This document shows, piece by piece, positions 27,153 to 39,273 of a DNA stretch of 64,000 bases (the stretch's first letter is position 1; each line of letters opens with the position of its first letter). Below the pieces are notes generated by a model, which worked only from the letters and a program-made list of their open reading frames with translations, made no database searches and was not told where the DNA came from. The translations under genes and the position numbers were made by a program. The DNA is from Candidatus Puniceispirillales bacterium (GTDB lineage: Bacteria > Pseudomonadota > Alphaproteobacteria > Puniceispirillales > UBA1172), in NCBI GenBank assembly GCA_049595035.1, contig JBMYKD010000002.1:109667-173666 (forward strand), given 5' to 3'.

Positions 27153-28139
27153 TTACTGAATGGCACCTGAAGCGCGCAAAATTGTTTCGTGATTTGCACG
27201 TTGCAGTTTCCAGTAAGCCATTAGCTCATCACCAGACATGAGTTCACCCATGAGTGACTTTTTGCTTTTATAGTCCTGCCAGTCATCCGAGGCATAAACC
27301 TTGGCAAACAGGTCAGTATAATAGGCTTCGGCTTCATCAGACATGCCCGGGGCACCAACAACAGAACGTTGCATGAAGTAGCTGAAATCAACCCCTTTTT
27401 CACGCAAAGTAGGTACATCCGGGAACATTGGCAGACGTTCATCTGTAAATGCTACCAGAGCAATCATGTCACCGGATTCATAGAAACCAAGAGCTTCTGA
27501 TGGGTTGTTCACGGATGAATTGATCTGTTTACCAGCAACATCCTTAGCGACAGCACCCCCGCCCTTATACGGAATATACTTCATGGACAGGCCATAATTA
27601 TCATTCAGGAAATCGGTAATGATATTATCTTCGGAATTTGATCCTGTGCCACCCATGACCCAGTTCTTGCCTTCGGATTTTGCGACCTCAAGCCATTCTT
27701 CGAATGTTGTGATCCCACTATCCTTGTGAACCCATAAAAGGAATGTATCCTCAGCCATACGGGCAACCGGCGCAAATGTCAGAACATCTACATCCAGACC
27801 CGGCTGACGCAACGGGGTTGTATAAAATGAGTTCAATGTCACCATGATTGTATGATCAGGGTCACTGGCAGATTTAGCTGCAATCAGGGCTTCAGCCCCG
27901 GAACCACCAGATTTATTTGTTGGAACTAGTGGACGATTAGCAAGGTCTTCTTTTTCAACAATAGCCTGCATGAGTCGCGCCATTTTATCAGCACCACCAC
28001 CTTTACCGGCCATAATAATGAAATCGATAGGCTTGTTAGGTTGCCAGCCATGTCCATCTGCTTGCGCAAATCCTGACATTGCTGAAAGTGTCATGCCAGC
28101 GGCAACAAAGCCGGTGGCCATCTTTTTAAAAATGCTCAT
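27153..28139 (-). CDS. tctC: TTT-family (Bug/TctC) periplasmic solute-binding protein
   Basis: Signal peptide MSIFKKMATGFVAAGMTLSAMSGFAQA and ...GKGGGADK... The ATG at 28139 follows AGGAGG. The track ORF is 23 codons longer. Confidence 0.88.
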   Translation of the reverse strand: MSIFKKMATGFVAAGMTLSAMSGFAQADGHGWQPNKPIDFIIMAGKGGGADKMARLMQAIVEKEDLANRPLVPTNKSGGSGAEALIAAKSASDPDHTIMVTLNSFYTTPLRQPGLDVDVLTFAPVARMAEDTFLLWVHKDSGITTFEEWLEVAKSEGKNWVMGGTGSNSEDNIITDFLNDNYGLSMKYIPYKGGGAVAKDVAGKQINSSVNNPSEALGFYESGDMIALVAFTDERLPMFPDVPTLREKGVDFSYFMQRSVVGAPGMSDEAEAYYTDLFAKVYASDDWQDYKSKKSLMGELMSGDELMAYWKLQRANHETILRASGAIQ

Positions 28140-28222
28140 GTCTTCCTCCTTTAGAGCGGTTTCCCTTATTATTATCAAATAGACCGTTTTGGTCAGGAAA
28201 CTTACCAAACGGCAAAATAAAA

Positions 28223-28258
28223 GTGAAAATATGAAACTTGTAAATTTTTACAATTTAC
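28223..28258. promoter_or_regulatory. operator-like motif upstream of tctC: GTGAAAAT-N7-TTGTAAA-TT-TTTACAA-TTTAC
   Basis: 7-bp inverted repeat TTGTAAA/TTTACAA (28238-28253), about 100 nt upstream of the tctC ATG. A near-identical block occurs at 39342-39378. Confidence 0.35.
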
Positions 28259-28274
28259 TTAGTCTACACATCCA

Positions 28275-29138
28275 CTAATGTACCAGAACCAATGGCCCTG
28301 ATGCATGATCGACAAAATGTTGCGTCACTCCTCCTAATATTCTTTCAAAATACTGATTATTACCATAAGCCCCCAGAATAACGATATCAGCCTCACATGC
28401 CAGGCTAGCCTGCATTAAAGATGCCCCGGTTGTACCGGATGGCTTTACCATAATGATATCTGCCTTAATGTCATGTTCGGTCAGGTAGCTTTGCAATTCT
28501 TCCGGCTTGATTTCAACATGACCATTTTCAACAGTCAAAATCGTCAGCTTTTTAGCTATTTTCATCAGCCATAATGTCTGTGCTACCGCCCGTGTGGATT
28601 CAATCGATCCATCCCAGCATAATGCAACCTTATCAATGATATGGCTGTTATGATCAGGCATGTGTTCATCACACATATAGACAGGTCTGCCGGTATGGAA
28701 TAAGGCCGTTTTAAGGGTATTAGCACCTAAATTCCGGTCTATTTCCGGCTTGGCCACAACAATAATATCCGATAGACGGCCATGCCGCCTGACAACATCT
28801 ACCTGACGGCCTTCTGCTTCAATGAATTGTACAGAAACTTTATTTGCCACGGGCTGATCTGACATCGTCACCTCGGCAGATGAACAAATACGCTCCACTT
28901 CGCCACGCATAGCGGTTTCAGCCATATTGAAGACAGAGGCCGATTGGGTCATGATCTGCTTTTTCATATCCCGTGACATGGGCACACCAAAAGGCAGCAT
29001 GTCTTCGGGACGTAACCGGCAATGGGTGACAATAATATGGGCGTTTACCGCTTTTGCCAGAGAAATAGCATGGCGCAAAACGCGTTCCGCATTACCATCA
29101 TCTCTAACAGGAACGACTACCCTGTTTATCATTGTCAC
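28275..29138 (-). CDS. tandem universal stress protein (UspA family)
   Basis: 287 aa with two USP halves, each ending in a G-x2-G-x9-G(S/T)-like segment (...LGAYGNNQYFERILGGVT...). It starts 12 nt after the fhs stop. Confidence 0.78.
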   Translation of the reverse strand: MTMINRVVVPVRDDGNAERVLRHAISLAKAVNAHIIVTHCRLRPEDMLPFGVPMSRDMKKQIMTQSASVFNMAETAMRGEVERICSSAEVTMSDQPVANKVSVQFIEAEGRQVDVVRRHGRLSDIIVVAKPEIDRNLGANTLKTALFHTGRPVYMCDEHMPDHNSHIIDKVALCWDGSIESTRAVAQTLWLMKIAKKLTILTVENGHVEIKPEELQSYLTEHDIKADIIMVKPSGTTGASLMQASLACEADIVILGAYGNNQYFERILGGVTQHFVDHASGPLVLVH

Positions 29139-29150
29139 CCCCTTTAAATG

Positions 29151-30827
29151 TTAGAATAACCCCTCAATAAGGCCATTTTCATTAATGTGAATGCTTTCTG
29201 CTGCCGGCACTCTTGGCAATCCGGGCATCGTCATAATCTCACCACAGACAACGACGACAAAACCTGCACCTGCTGATAACCGGACTTCACGGATAGGAAG
29301 GCTATGGCCAGTTGGTGCGCCACGTTTATTCGGGTCTGTGGTAAAGCTATATTGCGTTTTTGCCATACATACTGGCAATTTACCATAACCCTGCTCTTCC
29401 CATGCTTTTAATTGATCGCGTAATTTCTGATCGGCAATCACTTCATCAGCGCGGTAGATTTCTTTGGCGATGGTTTCGATTTTTTCAAAAAGCCCCATTT
29501 CAACAGGATAAAGGGGCTGGTAATTAGTAGGTGATGATTCAATCATATTGACTACCGCTTTCGCCAGTTCTTCTGTTCCTGCGCTACCATCAGCCCAGTG
29601 GCGGCAGACAATGGCTGTGCCACCCTGATTATGAACGAATGTTTTCAATGCTTCAATTTCAGCATCGGTATCGCTGTAAAAATGATTGATAGCAACAATC
29701 GCCGGGACACCGAATTTCTGGATGTTTTCCATATGCCGGCCAAGATTAGGACAGCCGCGCTTGACCGCTTCGACATTTTCAACCCCAAGATCAGCCTTGG
29801 CAATGCCTCCGTTCATCTTCATTGCCCGAACCGTGGCAACAATTACGGTAGCATCTGGCTTCAACCCTGCCTGACGGCATTTGATATCAAGGAACTTTTC
29901 AGCCCCTAGATCAGCACCAAATCCGGCTTCGGTAACGACATAATCAGCCAGTTTAAGTGCGGTTTTTGTAGCAATGACCGAATTACACCCATGGGCAATA
30001 TTGGCGAATGGCCCACCATGAACAAAGGCAGGGTTATTTTCCAGTGTCTGCACCAGATTAGGTTGCATGGCCTGTTGCAATAGCACCGTCATGGCACCAT
30101 CAGCCTTAATATCACGACAGAATACCGGGCTACGATCACGACGATAGGCAATGATTATATCACCAAGACGACGTTCCAGATCAGCCAGATCATCTGCCAG
30201 ACAGAGAATAGCCATCACTTCTGATGCAACCGTAATATCAAATCCAGCTTCCCGTGGGAAACCATTGGCAACCCCCCCAAGGCTACATGTAATCTGACGG
30301 AGTGCTCTATCATTCATATCGAGAACGCGGCGGAAAGCGACACGGCGAATATCGATATCCTGCTCATTTCCCCAGTAAATGTGATTATCAATCAGGGCGG
30401 CTAACAAATTATGAGCTGATGTAATCGCATGAAAATCACCAGTAAAATGGAGGTTCATTTCTTCCATGGGGACGACTTGTGAATATCCCCCACCAGCGGC
30501 ACCACCCTTCATACCAAAGCAAGGGCCAAGTGACGCCTCACGGATACAGATAGCGGCGTTTTTGCCAATCCGGTTCAACCCATCACCAAGTCCGACGGTG
30601 GTTGTTGTTTTCCCTTCACCTGCAGGGGTAGGGTTAATGGCGGTGACGAGAATCAATTTGCCATTTTCACGTCCATCAAGGCTTTTGATAAAGCTTTCAG
30701 ATACCTTGGCCTTATCATGGCCATAGGGAAGCAAATGTTCATATGGAATACCAAGCTTTTCCCCAATATCCTTGATGGGTTTCTTTTTGGCTTCGCGGGC
30801 AATTTCAATGTCAGTTTTGTAGCTCAC
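29151..30827 (-). CDS. fhs: formate--tetrahydrofolate ligase
   Basis: 558 aa with ...[14 protein letters not shown]... P-loop and ...[13 protein letters not shown]... Confidence 0.95.
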
Positions 30828-30852: not shown

Positions 30853-31767
30853 CTAGTGTCCTAGAGTATTTCCGGTTTTAAGAGAGATTATTGATGCCCA
30901 TTCTGAAGCCGGAATCTTTCCGCTACCTTCAGGCCGGACACGTTTAATAAGAATTCGTCCACCATTTGCTTGGACTGTTACTCCTTCTTCAGAGATAGCA
31001 ACAATCTCACCAGCTTTGCCATCGCCGTCCATTCTAACTGCGTCATATATTTTTATCTCATCACCATTCAGCGTTGTCCACGCCCCTGGGGCAGGGTTTG
31101 CCGCCCGGATGGTGTTGTAGGTATCGGCTACCGGCTTAGACCAGTCGAGTTTAGCGCAATCCTTGTTAAACCAGCCTTCATAAGTGCCGTCTTCCAGCCG
31201 TTGATCATGTTTGATAATGACCCCGGCCTTAACCAGATCAAGACCTTCCAGCATTGCCGCGACCCCCATTGGGAACAGCTTTTTGAAATAGACATCACCA
31301 AGGGTTTCATCCGCACCAATAGGACAGGTTTTCTGCAACATGATTGGCCCTTCATCCAGACCGTCATCAGGCCAGAAAATCGTCAGTCCGGTATGGGTTT
31401 TACCCATAGCAATCGGCCAGTTGATAGATGAAGGCCCCCTATGTTGCGGGCATAAAGATGGATGATACTGGAATGTTCCATAAGTGGGTGCATCACGCAC
31501 CGCTTCAGGGACGAATAGCAATACATATGCCATCATGCATATATCAGCTTTGAAAGATTGCATTAAGGCAAGGGCTTCGGGCGTTTTCCATGACGCTGGC
31601 TGATGCAAGGGAAGTCCTTTTTCCTTTGCCAGTAATGCCAGCGGGTCCTCGGGCTTACCTTCTTTCGTCGGGGCACAACATACGGCAACCACATCTTCGC
31701 CTCTATCCAGAAGCTCTTTTAATACCGCTTCGCCAAAAGCCTGTTGTCCGTGTAAAACGATCCGCAT
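30853..31767 (-). CDS. formyltransferase-family protein resembling the N-terminal (hydrolase/formyl-transfer) domain of 10-formyl-THF dehydrogenase
   Basis: 304 aa with QYHPSLCPQHRGPSSINW (catalytic His), FWPDDGLDEGPIMLQ (catalytic Asp) and ...TYEGW...LDW...NP.PGAWT in the C-subdomain. Confidence 0.72.
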   Translation of the reverse strand: MRIVLHGQQAFGEAVLKELLDRGEDVVAVCCAPTKEGKPEDPLALLAKEKGLPLHQPASWKTPEALALMQSFKADICMMAYVLLFVPEAVRDAPTYGTFQYHPSLCPQHRGPSSINWPIAMGKTHTGLTIFWPDDGLDEGPIMLQKTCPIGADETLGDVYFKKLFPMGVAAMLEGLDLVKAGVIIKHDQRLEDGTYEGWFNKDCAKLDWSKPVADTYNTIRAANPAPGAWTTLNGDEIKIYDAVRMDGDGKAGEIVAISEEGVTVQANGGRILIKRVRPEGSGKIPASEWASIISLKTGNTLGH

Positions 31768-31783: not shown

Positions 31784-33070
31784 TTATTCTGCCGCCTTGT
31801 TTACGTCACCTACTGCACCTGATGATACGATATTTTCAATTTCACCATCATCATAATGCAATACATCTTGCAAAATTTCCAATGTATGTTCACCAAGCAA
31901 TGGCGACCGTGTGACTTCAACCGGACTTGCTGATAGCTTTACCGGACATCCCACCGAAATATATTCCCCGCGTTCGGGGTGGTCGACTTTTACCAGTGTG
32001 CCCGTATCATATAGCCCTTCATCTTCAGCAATCTCTTTCATTGATAGAATAGGGCCAACCGGAATATCTAGCGGATTACATAAATCCATGACTTCGAATT
32101 TGGTTTTTGTCATAGTCCATGCTTCGATTCGTTCAAATATCTGATTAAGTTTATCGAGCCGTTCCGGTGGTGTGGCAAAGCCGTCAGCTGTTTTCCAGTC
32201 TGGTTCACCAATCAGATCACATACCTTTTCCCACACTGCCGCCTGAATAATGAAATAGGTATAGGCATTCGGGTCACTTTCCCAGCCCTTGCATTTCAGG
32301 ATACGGCCGGGTTGTCCACCGCCAGAATCATTACCAGCGCGCGGAGTAGCCTCACCAAATGGGATGCCTTCGCCAAATTGCGAATATTCTCTCAGAGGGC
32401 CTGCCTCAAGGCGTTGCTGATCACGCATCTTGACCCGTGCCAGATTAAGCACCGCATCCTGCATGGCAACGCTTACCCTTTGCCCCAATCCTGTTTTTTC
32501 ACGGTGGAATAATGCTGTAACAATACCCAGACATAAATGCAGGCCTGTGCCAGAATCGCCAATCTGCGCCCCTGTTACTAATGGCGGGCCATCCAGAAAT
32601 CCGGTGGTAGATGCAGAACCACCAGCGCATTGCGCCACATTTTCATAAACCTTGCAATCTTCATATTTGCCGGGGCCAAAGCCTTTTATTGATGCCAGAA
32701 TAATCCGTGGGTTGATTTCATGAACACGTTCCCAGCTGAACCCCATTCTGTCCAGTGCACCGGGAGCAAAGTTTTCTACCAGAACATCACATTCCTTAAT
32801 CAGTCTGGTCAGAACTTCCTTACCGGTTTCATTTTTAGAGTTCAGTTCAATCGACCGTTTATTATGATTCAGCATGGTAAAATAGAGGCTGTCAGAGCCA
32901 GGCTTATCAACAAGCTGCTTGCGTGTTGCATCACCAACGCCCGGCCGTTCGACCTTAATCACATCAGCACCAAACCATCCCAGAATCTGGGTACATGTGG
33001 GTCCTGATTGAACATGGGTAAAGTCGAGTACTTTAATCCCTTCTAACGCTTTCATCATCTTATTCACCAT
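31784..33070 (-). CDS. frc: formyl-CoA:oxalate CoA-transferase
   Basis: ...[34 protein letters not shown]..., ...[10 protein letters not shown]... and ...LKCKGWE... parallel O. formigenes Frc. The start may be the ATG at 33058. Confidence 0.92.
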
Positions 33071-33116: not shown

Positions 33117-34877
33117 CTAGGATTTTGCCTTATTCTGCATCACAATACTTTGTGGGTTCAAATTACCAATCCGTCCACTTTCGGTACCAGCCCCTTCATC
33201 AATGATGGCATTGACCAAAGTAGGCTTGCCAGATGCCAATGCTTCACGCACGGCGCGGCCAAGTTCATCAGGATTGGTGACATAAACACCAACCCCGCCA
33301 AAAGCCTGCATCATCATATCGTAACGGGAATCCTTAACAAATACCGTTGGTGCCACATCATCGCCACCGGTCGGGTTTTTATCTGTTCCCCGATAGATGC
33401 CGTTGTTATTAAAGACAACAATACAGACAGGCAGGTTATATCGGCAAATCGTCTCAATTTCCATGCCAGAGAAACCAAACGCACTATCACCTTCAATGGC
33501 TAGAACAGATTTACCAGTTTCTATTGCCGCGGCAATCGAAGCGCCCTGACCAATACCCATAATGCCCCAGGTGCCAACATCAATCCGGTGCCTTGGCTTA
33601 TAGATATCAATAATGCTACGGGCAAAATCCAGCGTATTTGCGCCTTCGTTAACTAAAATGATATCAGGGTTATCCTTAACAACCTGACGCAATGATCCAA
33701 GCGCCCCATGATAATCCATAGGCACGGCATTACTCATTAATTTAGAGGCCATTTTTTCCAGATTGACCGCTTTTTTGTCATTAATCATTCCCAGCCAGTC
33801 ATCAGATGGTTTATTCCAGTTTGTTCCCATCTCTTCATCCATCAATTCAAGACATGAACCAATATCTCCAACTAGCGGTGCGGCAATTTCGACATTGCTA
33901 TCCATTTCACGGGGCTCAATATCAATCTGGATGAATTTTTTTGCCCCCGGTGCCCCCCAGGCTTTACCCTTACCATGGGACAATAGCCAGTTTAGCCTTG
34001 CACCAATAAGCATTACCACATCAGCCTCTTTCAGAACAAGCGACCGCGCCGCCGCCGCTGATTGGGGATGATCATCAGGCAGTAATCCTTTGGCCATACT
34101 CATGGGCAGATACGGAACACCACTTTTTTCAACAAAGCGTTTCAACAGCTCATCTTCCTGTGCATATGCAGCACCTTTACCTATGATCAATAAAGGTTTC
34201 TTTGCTTGTTTCAGCACATCAACCGCTCGCGTTATGGCCGCTGGTGATGGCAATTGGGCAGGCGCTGGATCAATGACTTTAACCAGAGAAGCCTTACCCT
34301 TTTCCGCGTCCATCACTTGTGAGAATAATTGCGCCGGCAAATCAAGATAAACACCGCCCGGACGCCCGGAACAGGCGGCTCTGATAGCCCTTGCTATACC
34401 AATGCCAATATCTTCCGCATGAAGAATACGGAATGCCGCCTTGCAAAGCGGCTTGGCAATCGCTAACTGATCCATTTCTTCATAATCACCCTGCTGAAGA
34501 TCAACAATTTCACGCTCGGATGATCCGCTGATCAATATCATAGGAAAACAGTTTGTTGTCGCATTGGCCAGTGCTGTCAGGCCATTCAAAAACCCCGGCG
34601 CGGAAACAGTCAAGGCTACCCCCGGCTTTTTCGTCAGATAACCGGCAATGGACGCGGCATATCCGGCATGTTGTTCGTGACGGAAAGAAATCACGCGCAT
34701 ACCTTCCGCCTGAGCGATACGTCCAAGATCGGTGATCGGGATGCCGGGAACATTATATATCGTATTGATATCATTTAGCTTTAGCGCATCAACAACAAGA
34801 TGAAATCCATCAGTAAGTTGGGCTACATCGGTATCTGTATCCTGATTATCCTGTTTTGCAACGGTCTGATCAGACAT
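33117..34877 (-). CDS. oxc: oxalyl-CoA decarboxylase (ThDP-dependent). The frame is open upstream into the GntR module.
   Basis: Begins MSDQ...[27 protein letters not shown]..., with ...[12 protein letters not shown]... and ...[22 protein letters not shown]... Collinear with stand-alone Oxc proteins from the first residue. Confidence 0.92.
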
Positions 34878-35699
34878 GGAAAGCTCCTTTTTTGTATCTT
34901 TATTTGCAGGTGTTATTAATTCGGGTTTGGATAACGACAAATCATCATCCGGCGTTTCAGCTTGAGATTCTGGTTTTTGAGCTTCTGCATTATTGCCGTC
35001 ATCGCTATTGGAAAAAACCGTCCAGCGTGATCTGATATGATCATGCAGGCGCATGGTATGTTCACGCACAAGATTGGCAGCGAGGTCTGCATCTCTGGCT
35101 TCGAGAGCATTAATAATCTCTAGGTGATCAGATAGTGATTTACTGGCACGGTCATCTTCATGGATAGCGCGTCTACGGATAGCCGCCATCTGCATGAATA
35201 GCTGATCTGTTGTGGTTTTCAGTAACGCACATCCGGATAATTCCAGTATCGTCTGATGAAAGGTGATATTGGCATCAGAATATTCACTGATTGGGATGGA
35301 ATCGCTTTCCCCGACAGCACCTTGTGCGAAACGCCGCAACAAAAGCAGATCATCATCACTGGCATGCTGGGTTACCAATCTGGCGGCCATACTTTCCAGC
35401 GCGGCCCATGTGATCACCATTTCCAGAATTTCCGTCATGGATTTGCGGTGGATAAATACACCTTTGCGGGGAATAATTTCAACCAGACCATCTTGTGCTA
35501 GGCGTGCCAGCACTTCACGAATCGGTGTGCGAGAAACCCCGAGCTGGGTGGCTAGCTGCCTTTCATCAAGGCGCAGATCTTCGTCGGAATCATAAATATC
35601 AACGCCGAGGATATAGTCACGAAGCACATCATAAAGGTGATCCTTTATGGTAAAGTCATTTGCTATTGGCTTAAGCTTCATATCGCTCAACGTTAACAT
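34878..35699 (-). CDS. GntR-family (FadR/FCD-type) transcriptional regulator module plus acidic linker, with no in-frame stop before oxc
   Basis: wHTH ...[37 protein letters not shown]... plus a helical FCD-like domain to about aa 226, then a 45-aa D/E/P/S-rich linker. Confidence 0.8.
34884..34889 (-). promoter_or_regulatory. internal Shine-Dalgarno (AAGGAG) for the oxc ATG at 34877
   Basis: The minus strand reads AAAAAAGGAGCTTTCCATG, a 6-nt spacer to the ATG. Confidence 0.55.
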
Positions 35700-35917
35700 T
35701 CCCCCCTTAGATCAGAATTTAATCTGATGATCTTGCTGGATATATATCAAGTCATTCAGACAATTCTTAACTCAACAAAAATACAATATACCAAAGAAAC
35801 ACTTCGTCAAGCCAGTCTTATAAATTTATACTTTTATTATATATTACAGTTATTTGGCCATTTTTATCATAATTATTTAAAATAGCATGTCTGTTCCGGC
35901 TTGAAAAATCAGTCGGC

Positions 35918-35927
35918 TGGTATACCA
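35918..35927. promoter_or_regulatory. candidate GntR/FadR-type operator TGGTATACCA
   Basis: Perfect 10-bp palindrome of the TGGT-Nx-ACCA class in the divergent oxc/sucC intergenic region. A second inverted repeat, CCATAT-N5-ATATGG, lies at 35931-35947. Confidence 0.3.
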
Positions 35928-36018
35928 TAGCCATATCGTAAATATGGCAATGATTCCGGCGGTTTAATATCACTTATTAAAACATCCGTTTCTACACAAT
36001 CATATATAAGGAAAGTCG

Positions 36019-37215
36019 ATGAATATTCATGAATATCAAGCTAAGGCGATTTTAAAAAGCTATGGCGCACCTGTGGCGAACGGAGCGGTCATAACAGACG
36101 CCAGCCAGATTGATCATGCGATTGCATCCATGCCGGGGCCTGTCTGGGTGGTGAAAAGCCAGATACATGCTGGTGGCAGAGGTAAAGGCAAGTTCAAGGA
36201 ACTACCAGCCGAGGCAAAAGGCGGTGTCAGGGTAAGTTTCTCGGCCGATGAAGCCAAAGCCAATGCGCGTGAAATGTATGGCAAAACCCTTGTTACCGCG
36301 CAGACAGGGGAAAGCGGCAAGACCGTAAACAGGCTCTACATAGAAGACGGCGCCGATATTGATAAAGAACTCTATCTTTCCATCCTTGTTGATCGCGCCA
36401 TTGGCAAAGTCGCCTTTGTGGTATCCACCGAAGGCGGGATGGATATTGAAACAGTTGCCCATGATACACCTGAAAAAATCCACACAGTTGGTATTAATCA
36501 TGGCACAGGCTGCACGGATCAGGATGCAGGAACACTTGCTGACGCCCTTGGTCTGGACGGCAAAGCCAGAGAAGAAGGCATGGCTTTATTCAAAACCCTT
36601 TATCAGGCATTTGTGGAAAAGGATATGAGTCTGCTGGAAATCAATCCGCTAATCGTCACAAAAGCGAATGAGATTCAGGTGCTGGATGCGAAAGTATCCT
36701 TTGATAATAATGCTTTGTTTCGGCATCCTGATATTGTCGCTTTGCGGGATATCACGGAAGAAGACCCGAAAGAACTAGAAGCTTCAAAACATGACCTAGC
36801 CTATATCGCTCTTGATGGTGATATCGGCTGTATGGTGAATGGTGCCGGACTTGCCATGGCAACGATGGATATCATCAAGCTTTATGGCGCAGAACCAGCC
36901 AATTTTCTTGATGTCGGGGGCGGAGCCACAACGGAAAAAGTAACCGCCGCCTTCAAAATCATTACCGCTGATCCTAATGTTAAAGGGATTCTAGTTAATA
37001 TTTTTGGCGGCATTATGCGATGCGACGTGATTGCGGAAGGTGTTGTTCAAGCCGCCAAGGATATCGCACTTCATGTGCCTTTGGTGGTAAGACTGGAAGG
37101 CACAAAAGTGGCAGAAGGCAAAGCTATTCTTGAAGCAAGTGGACTTGATCTGATTGCCGCTGATGATCTGAATGACGCCGCTGAAAAAATTGTTAAAGCG
37201 GTAAAAGGGAATTAG
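36019..37215 (+). CDS. sucC: succinate--CoA ligase (ADP-forming) beta subunit
   Basis: [13 protein letters not shown]..., [17 protein letters not shown]... and [14 protein letters not shown]. Near-canonical alphaproteobacterial SucC. Confidence 0.92.
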
Positions 37216-38205: not shown

Positions 38206-39273
38206 TTACGCCGATTTAGCAGGCATATTTTCAGCGGCCTCATTTTTAGCAAGACGATCATCAACAATGGCCACGATGGAATCAACCGTAGGATTGAACA
38301 TATCCAGATGACGGCCGATGATTTGTATCATGCGGTCAACGCGTTCAACCTTTGTCGTGCCAGCATCAATGGCGCGCGCAACCGAGGACGGCTTTAACAG
38401 CTGTTTGGCGGCGGCGGCATATTTGGCAAAAGGAACCTGATCACTTTCATCAGCACCAAGTTTCTGTGCCAGATGATCAACCCAGCGATACATCTGTTCA
38501 GCGGTATCGATATCACCATGAACAGCATCATGAATAGGCTGGATATCATCAGAACGGACACAACGATAATTACCAGTCATCAGCATTGACCATTTGGCCA
38601 TGGGCACAAATAGTGAGTTAAACACCCGCAACTTCACTGGCACATCCTTGCCATCAATGCGGACATTATCAATATCTTCGGCCAGTGTTTTCAGCATGGC
38701 ATTATGTTCATCTGAAGCAAAGGTGCTGGCCTTGAAATTTGTTGGCAATCCGACATGAAGAACATTGCTGCCTTCTTCTGGTGGGCGGAATGCCTGCGGG
38801 TCAGGGCTACAAAGAGAGATCAGCCCCGGTTCAAAATTAGCCCAGACGCTGGCATCATCATAGCAGGATGAAAGATCAGCATCAGCAAGGGCAGGAATAC
38901 GTTTCAGGAAAGCCAGCGGCGGCATATTCATGATAGATAGGCAGGGTTTTTTCGCATCTGCAATCCGTTTCATCAAGCCGGCAACGGAAGGAGAGGCATA
39001 TTGCGGTTCCTGCATAGCCAGACCGATCAGATCATATTGTTCTGGCTCAACCTGTTCAGGCGTCTTGGCATCAAGGGTACCAGGTTGATCCTTTGAAAGA
39101 ATGGATCTATGCGTATCCTCATCCCGGAGCTTAATTCGCACCTCTGTGCCTTGCGTATTAATCAGCTGGGCAGAAGTCGAACGGCAAACCAGAGTCACAT
39201 CATGGCCAGCCATAAGCAGTTTTGTTGAAAGTAGTGATCCGTAAGATGCACCGAGGATTAGAATTTTCATCAC
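38206..39273 (-). CDS. divergent ketopantoate-reductase (ApbA/PanE)-like NAD(P) oxidoreductase, substrate unknown
   Basis: N-terminal Rossmann MKILILGASYGS. By-eye counterparts of PanE motifs: IMNMP (IHNG), AKWSMLMTGN (WRKLxxN) and PSSVARAID...ERVD (SSMLQD...TExD). Confidence 0.42.
   Translation of the reverse strand: MMKILILGASYGSLLSTKLLMAGHDVTLVCRSTSAQLINTQGTEVRIKLRDEDTHRSILSKDQPGTLDAKTPEQVEPEQYDLIGLAMQEPQYASPSVAGLMKRIADAKKPCLSIMNMPPLAFLKRIPALADADLSSCYDDASVWANFEPGLISLCSPDPQAFRPPEEGSNVLHVGLPTNFKASTFASDEHNAMLKTLAEDIDNVRIDGKDVPVKLRVFNSLFVPMAKWSMLMTGNYRCVRSDDIQPIHDAVHGDIDTAEQMYRWVDHLAQKLGADESDQVPFAKYAAAAKQLLKPSSVARAIDAGTTKVERVDRMIQIIGRHLDMFNPTVDSIVAIVDDRLAKNEAAENMPAKSA

Follow-up and report, generated by a model that had tools for sequence, protein, structure and literature searches.

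Does an open reading frame (ORF) that runs from a transcription regulator straight into a metabolic enzyme encode one protein, or does it join two ordinary genes by error? The question is raised by a 64,000-nucleotide stretch of a Candidatus Puniceispirillales bacterium (assembly GCA_049595035.1, contig JBMYKD010000002.1, positions 109,667 to 173,666; hereinafter the window), in which a FadR-type GntR regulator reads in frame into oxalyl-CoA decarboxylase (Oxc). The original prediction, made from the letters of the window, offered several accounts of this ORF, namely a genuine fusion of a GntR regulator with a thiamine diphosphate (ThDP)-dependent enzyme made beside a short Oxc isoform, a slippage-prone switch, and a 1-nt homopolymer artefact. 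The first of these is supported by fixation of the fusion in one clade, by selection on its frame, and by conservation of an internal Shine-Dalgarno (SD) sequence and ATG. The best overall explanation, and in our judgement a likely one, is a genuine, maintained fusion that gives a tethered GntR-FCD-linker-Oxc protein plus free Oxc. Regulator-enzyme fusions are rare natural experiments in wiring gene regulation to metabolism, and SAR116 bacteria, in which this one is found, are abundant in the ocean.

The 860-codon ORF at 33117-35699 contains the parts that had been read in it, a GntR winged helix-turn-helix (wHTH), an FCD domain and a full Oxc, as borne out by Pfam and NCBIfam. PF00392 (49 bits) and PF07729 (73 bits) both score above cut-off, and the regulator part, a GntR wHTH followed by an all-helical FCD domain, is a bona fide FadR-type GntR protein. 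TPP_enzyme_N, M and C (PF02776, PF00205 and PF02775) are all present at residues 298-830, and residues 286-855 match the oxalyl-CoA decarboxylase equivalogs TIGR03254 (986 bits, cut-off 739) and NF006721 (1007 bits, cut-off 557). The module aligns end to end with the Oxc structures of Methylorubrum extorquens (7ayg, 966 bits, the closest), Oxalobacter formigenes (2c31, 739 bits) and E. coli YfdU (2q27, 730 bits), and like these enzymes it adjoins frc, whereas they are stand-alone proteins of 564-583 amino acids (aa). It is a bona fide member of the oxalyl-CoA decarboxylase family, with activity predicted from its equivalog score and from a ratio of nonsynonymous to synonymous substitution rates (dN/dS) of 0.02-0.04.

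Recurrence, distribution and origin of the fused gene

The window allele, together with a one-residue variant, was assembled from six runs or samples (ERZ23498394, SRR28326285, the TARA sample SAMEA6039731, SRR23998813, SRR28326309 and SRR23998826), and the identical T6-containing 27-mer is found in 6/6 of those assemblies. The exact 860-aa protein is present in public collections (ENA, Logan), where its 90%-identity cluster holds seven 860-aa members.

Using the GntR part as query, we scanned one genome per GTDB species as well as metagenome contigs. All 18 other loci with at least 73% GntR identity are fused to Oxc in frame, and all 143 more distant loci that were scored have a stop codon after the regulator (three further loci could not be scored). 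In a neighbour-joining tree of the GntR domain, the fused loci are monophyletic, with unfused SAR116/Puniceispirillum loci as their sister group. The two SAR116 isolates encountered, LSUCC0396 and LSUCC0226, encode Oxc as a separate protein of 570 aa. The fused subclade spans at least eight GTDB species of SAR116 (Puniceispirillales) and includes a chromosome-level 2.5-Mb assembly (L012, OZ242263.1). Searching with the full-length protein gave ~48 clusters (90% identity) of 838-928 aa with GntR, FCD and TPP domains; these are drawn from NCBI, JGI, ENA, Logan and GEM, and some are found on 9-27 contigs each.

The T run at the junction bears on two other accounts of the ORF. A T6 run at 35012-35017, an off-frame TAG at 35005-35007 and a TAATAA at 34913-34918 had all been noted, as had the fact that only the observed frame is open through the linker; sequence reading agrees on each point, with no stop in the 48-49 codons of frame 0 and two and seven stops in the other frames. 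Homopolymer errors are common, and a 1-nt miscall in the T6 run would have joined two ordinary genes. Such errors do occur, in that a related metagenome-assembled genome (MAG; L004/L009, GCA_038144675.1) is full of frameshifts and the junctions of two distant singleton "fusions" (P0338 and P0339) look like frameshifts. However, the identical T6 junction recurs in six independent runs and assemblies, relatives with T4 or with no run are also fused, and the fusion, with linkers of several kinds, is a fixed feature of the clade, chromosome-level L012 included. Specifically, the run is T6 in the window, L004 and L007, T4 in L001, L002, L005, L006, L008, L010, L011 and L013, and absent in L012, and every one of these loci is fused. 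Orthologues with T7 or T5 and two ordinary genes, which the original prediction had named as the sign of an artefact, are absent among the fused-clade orthologues aligned, and the chance that the junction is a sequencing or assembly artefact is in our view negligible. The same distribution bears on a slippage switch or a programmed -1 frameshift at the T run, which would give an ordinary 231-aa regulator (WTVFFQ*) beside the fusion. A -1 shift at GTT TTT T does, in the window sequence, run into TAG after two codons. But T6 is found in only three lineages, as against T4 in six others and no run in L012; SNG variants (TCT AAT GGC) lack the off-frame TAG; and efficient transcriptional slippage usually takes a longer run than T6, so that a switch of this kind is very improbable. 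No conserved structure downstream of the run came to light, although none was looked for, and an Rfam scan of 34700-36100 gave just a chance miRNA match, well below the gathering score.

The nearest unfused relatives point to how the fusion arose. Same-strand adjacency of gntR and oxc is almost universal among the alphaproteobacterial loci retrieved. In the sister group, the gntR stop overlaps or abuts the oxc start, as ATGA (L015, L016), TAGaATG (L019, L025) or TAAtcATG (L014), and the oxc SD sequence lies within the last gntR codons. At a translationally coupled stop/start junction of this kind a single small mutation is enough to create a fusion, and the overlapping or abutting stop and start suggest a simple origin by loss of the gntR stop. 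In the ancestor of one SAR116 subclade, the FadR-type GntR repressor gene upstream of oxc would have lost its stop codon, after which every regulator molecule would be translated on into Oxc through a disordered acidic linker to give a GntR-FCD-linker-Oxc protein of ~94 kDa. The linkers contain short in-frame repeats (HEHEHE, QTPNQTPN, DGADVDGAD and SDNSSDN), and the linker appears to have grown after fusion, partly via such repeats.

Linker evolution and the internal start codon

Counted from a conserved Trp to the internal Met, the linkers are 28-96 codons long and belong to at least seven families, between which no alignment is possible. Frame 0 is stop-free in every linker, while the other two frames contain 1-5 and 3-18 stops. 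Dinucleotide shuffles of the linkers are stop-free with a probability of 0.002-0.16 per linker; of all the single-base changes possible in a linker, 2.5-4.9% are nonsense. Because synonymous divergence between fused members reaches 1-3 substitutions per site, many nonsense mutations must have arisen and then been removed. Close pairs differ by nucleotide indels of 30, 12 and 12+15 nt, and the window differs from the error-prone L004 by 25+11 nt; all net differences in linker length are multiples of three. Across fused relatives, dN/dS is 0.01-0.07 for GntR-FCD, 0.02-0.04 for Oxc and 0.13-0.57 for the linker, at a synonymous divergence of up to ~1.5. Together, the dN/dS values and the varied but stop-free linkers indicate that both domains are functional and that the linker is translated, with weak constraint on its sequence and strong constraint on its open frame. 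The fusion is almost certainly real, fixed in its clade and under selection for its frame.

Every linker is acidic, with a net charge between -1 and -13, and 76-89% of the residues are disorder-promoting; the corresponding values for the linker of the window are -6 and 85%. The linker had been described as acidic and Pro-rich, of which the first part holds and the second is slightly overstated (4 P in 45 residues). In an AlphaFold2 (AF2) model, which was used solely for linker disorder and not for inter-domain contacts, residues 231-296 have a predicted local distance difference test (pLDDT) score of 24-46 and no secondary structure, and helices are found at residues 88-232 (FCD).

The ancestral oxc start is still in place. 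The AAGGAG at 34884-34889, six nucleotides before the ATG at 34877-34875, was confirmed by sequence reading. In 10/10 fused lineages examined, a GGAG or GAGG core begins exactly at position -12 relative to the ancestral oxc ATG, and the linkers of the window, L001 and L004 have no other SD-like core. Three codon combinations (AAG/GAG GAG, GAG GTA and GGA GGA) encode the core. Glu codons at the SD site are GAG in 17 of 17 cases, whereas elsewhere in these genes the GAA:GAG ratio is 342:130. The internal Met is invariant in fused lineages, while the first ~20 residues of Oxc vary. An SD core and an ATG conserved amid variable sequence argue for nucleotide-level selection on a working ribosome-binding site (RBS), from which we infer that free Oxc is made beside the fusion. 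The surviving SD and ATG would yield free Oxc of ~62 kDa from the same mRNA, probably the major enzyme species, and it seems fairly probable from this conservation that the long and the short product are both made. Within the linker, a scan by consensus gave neither a sigma-70-like promoter nor a terminator, a result that neither proves nor excludes an internal promoter.

Two other readings accept the fusion and dispute what it makes or what it is for. Oxc could be made solely as the 94-kDa fusion, with the internal SD and ATG as a decaying relic; counter-selection of stops could then reflect Oxc synthesis that depends on ribosomes starting at gntR. A catabolic enzyme is normally needed in far larger amount than its repressor, which counts against a single product, as does the retention of the core at -12 and of the ATG in all lineages despite linker turnover, and the use of GAG in 17/17 cases at the SD in genes that prefer GAA. 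We regard a single product as quite unlikely. The link could also be neutral read-through, functionless or proteolysed, that persists since a long flexible linker is harmless. Consistent with this, its origin needs only one small mutation at the overlapping stop/start, the linker evolves fast (dN/dS up to 0.57, or 1.5 in one pair), an FCD sensor domain is already part of the regulator, and the fusion is seen in no other clade. Under neutrality, stops would be expected to return, yet a linker stop is found in 0/19 loci and 0/~48 protein clusters, despite ~3-5% nonsense changes and synonymous divergence (dS) above 1. A new stop should cost little, as the internal SD and ATG are still in place and spacers of 60-110 nt are tolerated in unfused relatives. 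In addition, linker dN/dS is 0.13-0.31 in well-diverged pairs, and the linkers are consistently acidic and polar. Neutral read-through is thus rather unlikely, and we prefer a maintained fusion accompanied by free Oxc.

Candidate operator, promoter-like block and a possible role of the tether

The perfect palindrome TGGTATACCA lies in the stretch that separates the fused gene from the divergent sucCD-type genes, and this is its only exact copy in the window. FadR-type GntR operators typically have the form TGGT-Nx-ACCA, which is the form of TGGTATACCA. The palindrome is found 60-240 nt upstream of the orthologous gntR in 70 of 84 loci, fused ones included. The regulator part of the fusion would still recognise TGGTATACCA upstream and autoregulate the operon. 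Stand-alone alphaproteobacterial FadR-type repressors are orthologous to this part (60-70% identity) and share with it the operator TGGTATACCA and the gene order gntR-oxc-frc, but their C-terminal tail is 20-35 aa long and often basic, and the stop that closes it overlaps or precedes the oxc ATG. Many of the stand-alone loci have two perfect operators 84 bp apart, whereas in the fused clade a single operator is accompanied by a conserved promoter block. The paired copies are seen in many Rhodobacterales and other unfused loci (L020-L084), where two perfect TGGTATACCA are ~84 bp (8 helical turns) apart, ~85 and 170 nt ahead of gntR; most SAR116 loci, whether fused or not, have a single copy.

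The exact pattern of the promoter block is found in fused loci only (15/164 loci). The block, in which L012 has CGGTATATTG in place of GGTATATTGTAT, contains an operator-like half-site, TGGTATA (35784-35793). Its role as a second operator is uncertain, and GGTATATTGTAT may simply be an extended -10 element. In fused lineages the distance from operator to block is 133-135, 123 or 93 bp, that is 12.7-12.9, 11.7 or 8.9 turns; the equal helical phase of the two sites is no more than a hint of cooperative binding.

Of the 87 columns of the regulator alignment that are at least 95% conserved in unfused orthologues (70 sequences), 78 are kept in the fused clade. Substitutions fixed in this clade are H170Q and G180H in FCD and A63V in the wHTH (at ~35190, 35160 and 35511, respectively). 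Among the FCD histidines that may belong to the metal/ligand pocket, H148, H192, H214 and H219/H221 are retained, but residue 170, a His at least 95% conserved in unfused orthologues, is Gln in all fused proteins. Judged from these substitutions, the effector pocket, its specificity or the DNA contacts may have been retuned after fusion.

What might the tether do? We lean towards the tether itself being adaptive. The most plausible benefit lies in Oxc as a tetramer, which would link or titrate the dimeric regulator. Specifically, GntR-Oxc homotetramers would hold two FCD dimers and could bridge the operator at 35918-35927 and the half-site at 35784-35793, and accumulating free Oxc would form mixed tetramers, dilute the fused subunits and weaken looping. 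If this were true, repression strength would be coupled to enzyme level, and abundance rather than a metabolite would feed back on the enzyme's own operon, a form of control that is previously undescribed. Oxc-mediated oligomerisation or titration of the repressor is nonetheless a long shot as the actual mechanism.

Several points weigh against a maintained fusion with a working tether. The fused loci are phylogenetically related, and their counts are non-independent events. The linker sequence itself is barely constrained, and its dN/dS is 1.5 in a very close pair with few substitutions (L001/L002), so that the tether may be relevant through its mere presence, or hardly at all. Classical allosteric coupling of the "trigger enzyme" kind is unlikely across a long floppy linker, and the retained FCD sensor also speaks against it. 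Proteolysis within the linker could release the two modules from each other once the protein is made. The 94-kDa and 62-kDa products are predicted from the sequence, and the AF2 model, built from a 38-sequence alignment, is poor overall (mean pLDDT 58, predicted template modelling score 0.34).

The architecture is reminiscent of PutA-type trigger enzymes (also BirA and NadR), which likewise combine an N-terminal DNA-binding module with an enzyme of the same pathway in one chain, and the candidate operator of the fusion likewise lies in its own divergent promoter region. PutA differs in that its DNA-binding module is a ribbon-helix-helix domain and its signal is the redox state of the enzyme together with membrane binding. 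The fusion, in contrast, keeps a complete FCD sensor, has a disordered linker of 45-100 aa and probably also makes its enzyme alone, and any coupling is hypothetical. The resemblance to PutA is therefore architectural, and functional coupling across a floppy linker is mechanistically doubtful. MocR, GabR and PdxR also join a GntR wHTH through a long flexible linker to a large, cofactor-dependent, oligomerising enzyme-fold domain. In MocR proteins, however, a fold-type-I pyridoxal phosphate aminotransferase-like domain replaces the effector domain, usually without a working pathway enzyme. A MocR-type identity was ruled out for the fusion, which keeps FCD and adds a full ThDP-dependent Oxc as a third module. 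With the long and short forms of ClpB, IF2 and CheA it would share an in-frame internal SD/ATG that gives products with a common C-terminal part, able to co-assemble; here the long form adds a whole transcription factor, and internal initiation is inferred from sequence conservation only.

The fusion is tractable. It is young, its unfused sister state is known down to the stop and start codons, and its sensor domain, operator and internal RBS have been kept. Its frame has been kept in an abundant ocean clade while the linker turned over extensively. The fusion therefore offers a clean test case for the question of whether tethering a repressor to its target enzyme is adaptive, and an example of a bacterial disordered linker under the constraints to stay open and stay acidic. 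It holds no new principle unless the tether has a regulatory role. No published description of a GntR-Oxc fusion or of its regulator was found in the open-access literature, in agreement with the earlier statement that no such fusion is known to have been described. The sequences themselves are already in public databases, where they are labelled just "oxalyl-CoA decarboxylase" (882 aa), and NCBI MAGs annotate exactly the 586-aa Oxc product for this gene; either way, the regulator is missing from the annotation.

Features, neighbours and related architectures

The coordinates of the fused gene, its parts and its nearest neighbours are collected in Table 1. The opening ATG (35699) reads ATA in close relatives of the fused ORF, and a G-rich SD-like run, AAGGGGGG (35702-35709), is kept in them. 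Because the first ATG is not conserved, translation probably begins slightly further in, either at the TTG at 35690 or at the ATG at 35681 (MKLKP), which would shorten the ORF by no more than 6 codons.

Table 1. Features of the fused locus, in window coordinates
Feature	Position	Strand	Remarks
Fused ORF gntR(FCD)-linker-oxc	33117..35699	(-)	Single continuous 860-codon ORF; exact protein present in public assemblies
GntR winged helix-turn-helix	35451..35573	(-)	Pfam PF00392, residues 43-83
FCD effector-binding and dimerisation domain	35058..35405	(-)	PF07729, residues 99-214; last helix to ~residue 232
T6 run, codons GTT TTT TCC	35012..35017	(-)	Real, yet not conserved in relatives
Acidic low-complexity linker, residues 230-274	34878..35012	(-)	Stop-free in frame; no predicted secondary structure
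Internal Shine-Dalgarno AAGGAG	34884..34889	(-)	6 nt upstream of oxc ATG
Ancestral oxc start codon ATG, now internal in-frame Met	34875..34877	(-)	Sequence reading, relatives
Oxalyl-CoA decarboxylase module, 586 aa plus stop	33117..34877	(-)	TIGR03254, 986 bits; PDB 7ayg, 966 bits
frc (formyl-CoA transferase), next operon gene	31784..33070	(-)	TIGR03253, 690 bits
Perfect palindrome TGGTATACCA, candidate FadR-type GntR operator	35918..35927		Divergent intergenic region
Promoter-like block CTTGACG-N12-GGTATATTGTAT (TTGACG, 16 nt, TATTGT)	35781..35811	(-)	Invariant in fused clade
Methionyl-tRNA-formyltransferase-like gene	30853..31767	(-)	133 bits, below fmt cut-off of 201; between frc and ligase
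Formate-tetrahydrofolate ligase	29151..30827	(-)	

Outside the SAR116 clade, the searches made gave no independent well-supported GntR-Oxc fusion, with one possible exception, P0341. This EukProt Trinity transcript (747 aa, GC-rich), which comes from a eukaryote transcriptome, has an intact FCD C-terminus (RTWTRL...) from which the frame runs on for ~45 codons to reach Oxc. Either a second, independent fusion or a frame left open by chance in GC-rich DNA could account for it, and its source is probably an associated GC-rich alphaproteobacterium. Two further candidates, P0338 and P0339 (847 and 828 aa; 62-63% identity; singletons), were rejected as fusions, as both have, in place of the FCD C-terminus, Arg-rich sequence that looks out of frame. 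Frameshift errors or pseudogenes are the probable explanation, and the pair forms a useful contrast to the SAR116 clade. A comparison of the full protein with 1.84 billion 50%-identity representatives gave no further GntR-Oxc architecture among the top 150 matches, a search that is uninformative here. The long matches in it are of other kinds. P0155 (1105 aa), P0163 and P0179 are Oxc-like ThDP enzymes with an N-terminal AMP-binding acyl-CoA ligase domain, and chains of the P0155 type could carry an oxalate/acyl-CoA ligase plus a decarboxylase in one polypeptide; P0224 is a fusion of PEP-mutase with a ThDP enzyme.

Two of the related loci show signs of assembly trouble. On the 1.6-Mb contig of L004/L009 (GCA_038144675.1, JAYQOF010000005.1), nearly all genes of the locus are fragmented, including sucC, oxc, frc and fhs; the breakage is typical of uncorrected long-read indels, and the linker is still in frame. 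On the JGI contig L001 (8678-9959), frc is split into two ORFs of 194 and 224 aa, compared with 422-428 aa elsewhere, probably because of a local frameshift or assembly error.

The neighbourhood is that of oxalate catabolism. Downstream of the fused gene, the operon continues with frc, a formyltransferase-like gene and a formate-tetrahydrofolate ligase, and the synteny of frc is kept in relatives. Upstream, on the opposite strand, are a pair of the succinate/malate-CoA-ligase type (sucCD-type), a RamB-like regulator and a formate dehydrogenase alpha subunit. The genes make up a coherent module that leads from oxalate to formyl-CoA and on to formate and one-carbon metabolism. Conserved syntenic ORFs of 355, 351 and 287 aa (38206-39273 (-), 27153-29138 (-)) have no NCBIfam match at E<=1e-10; by Pfam, the 351- and 287-aa ORFs in related loci are TctC-like and faintly Usp-like, and the 355-aa protein matches no family. 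The position of the formyltransferase-like gene, between frc and the ligase, suggests a dedicated step that links formyl-CoA or formate to the folate pool.

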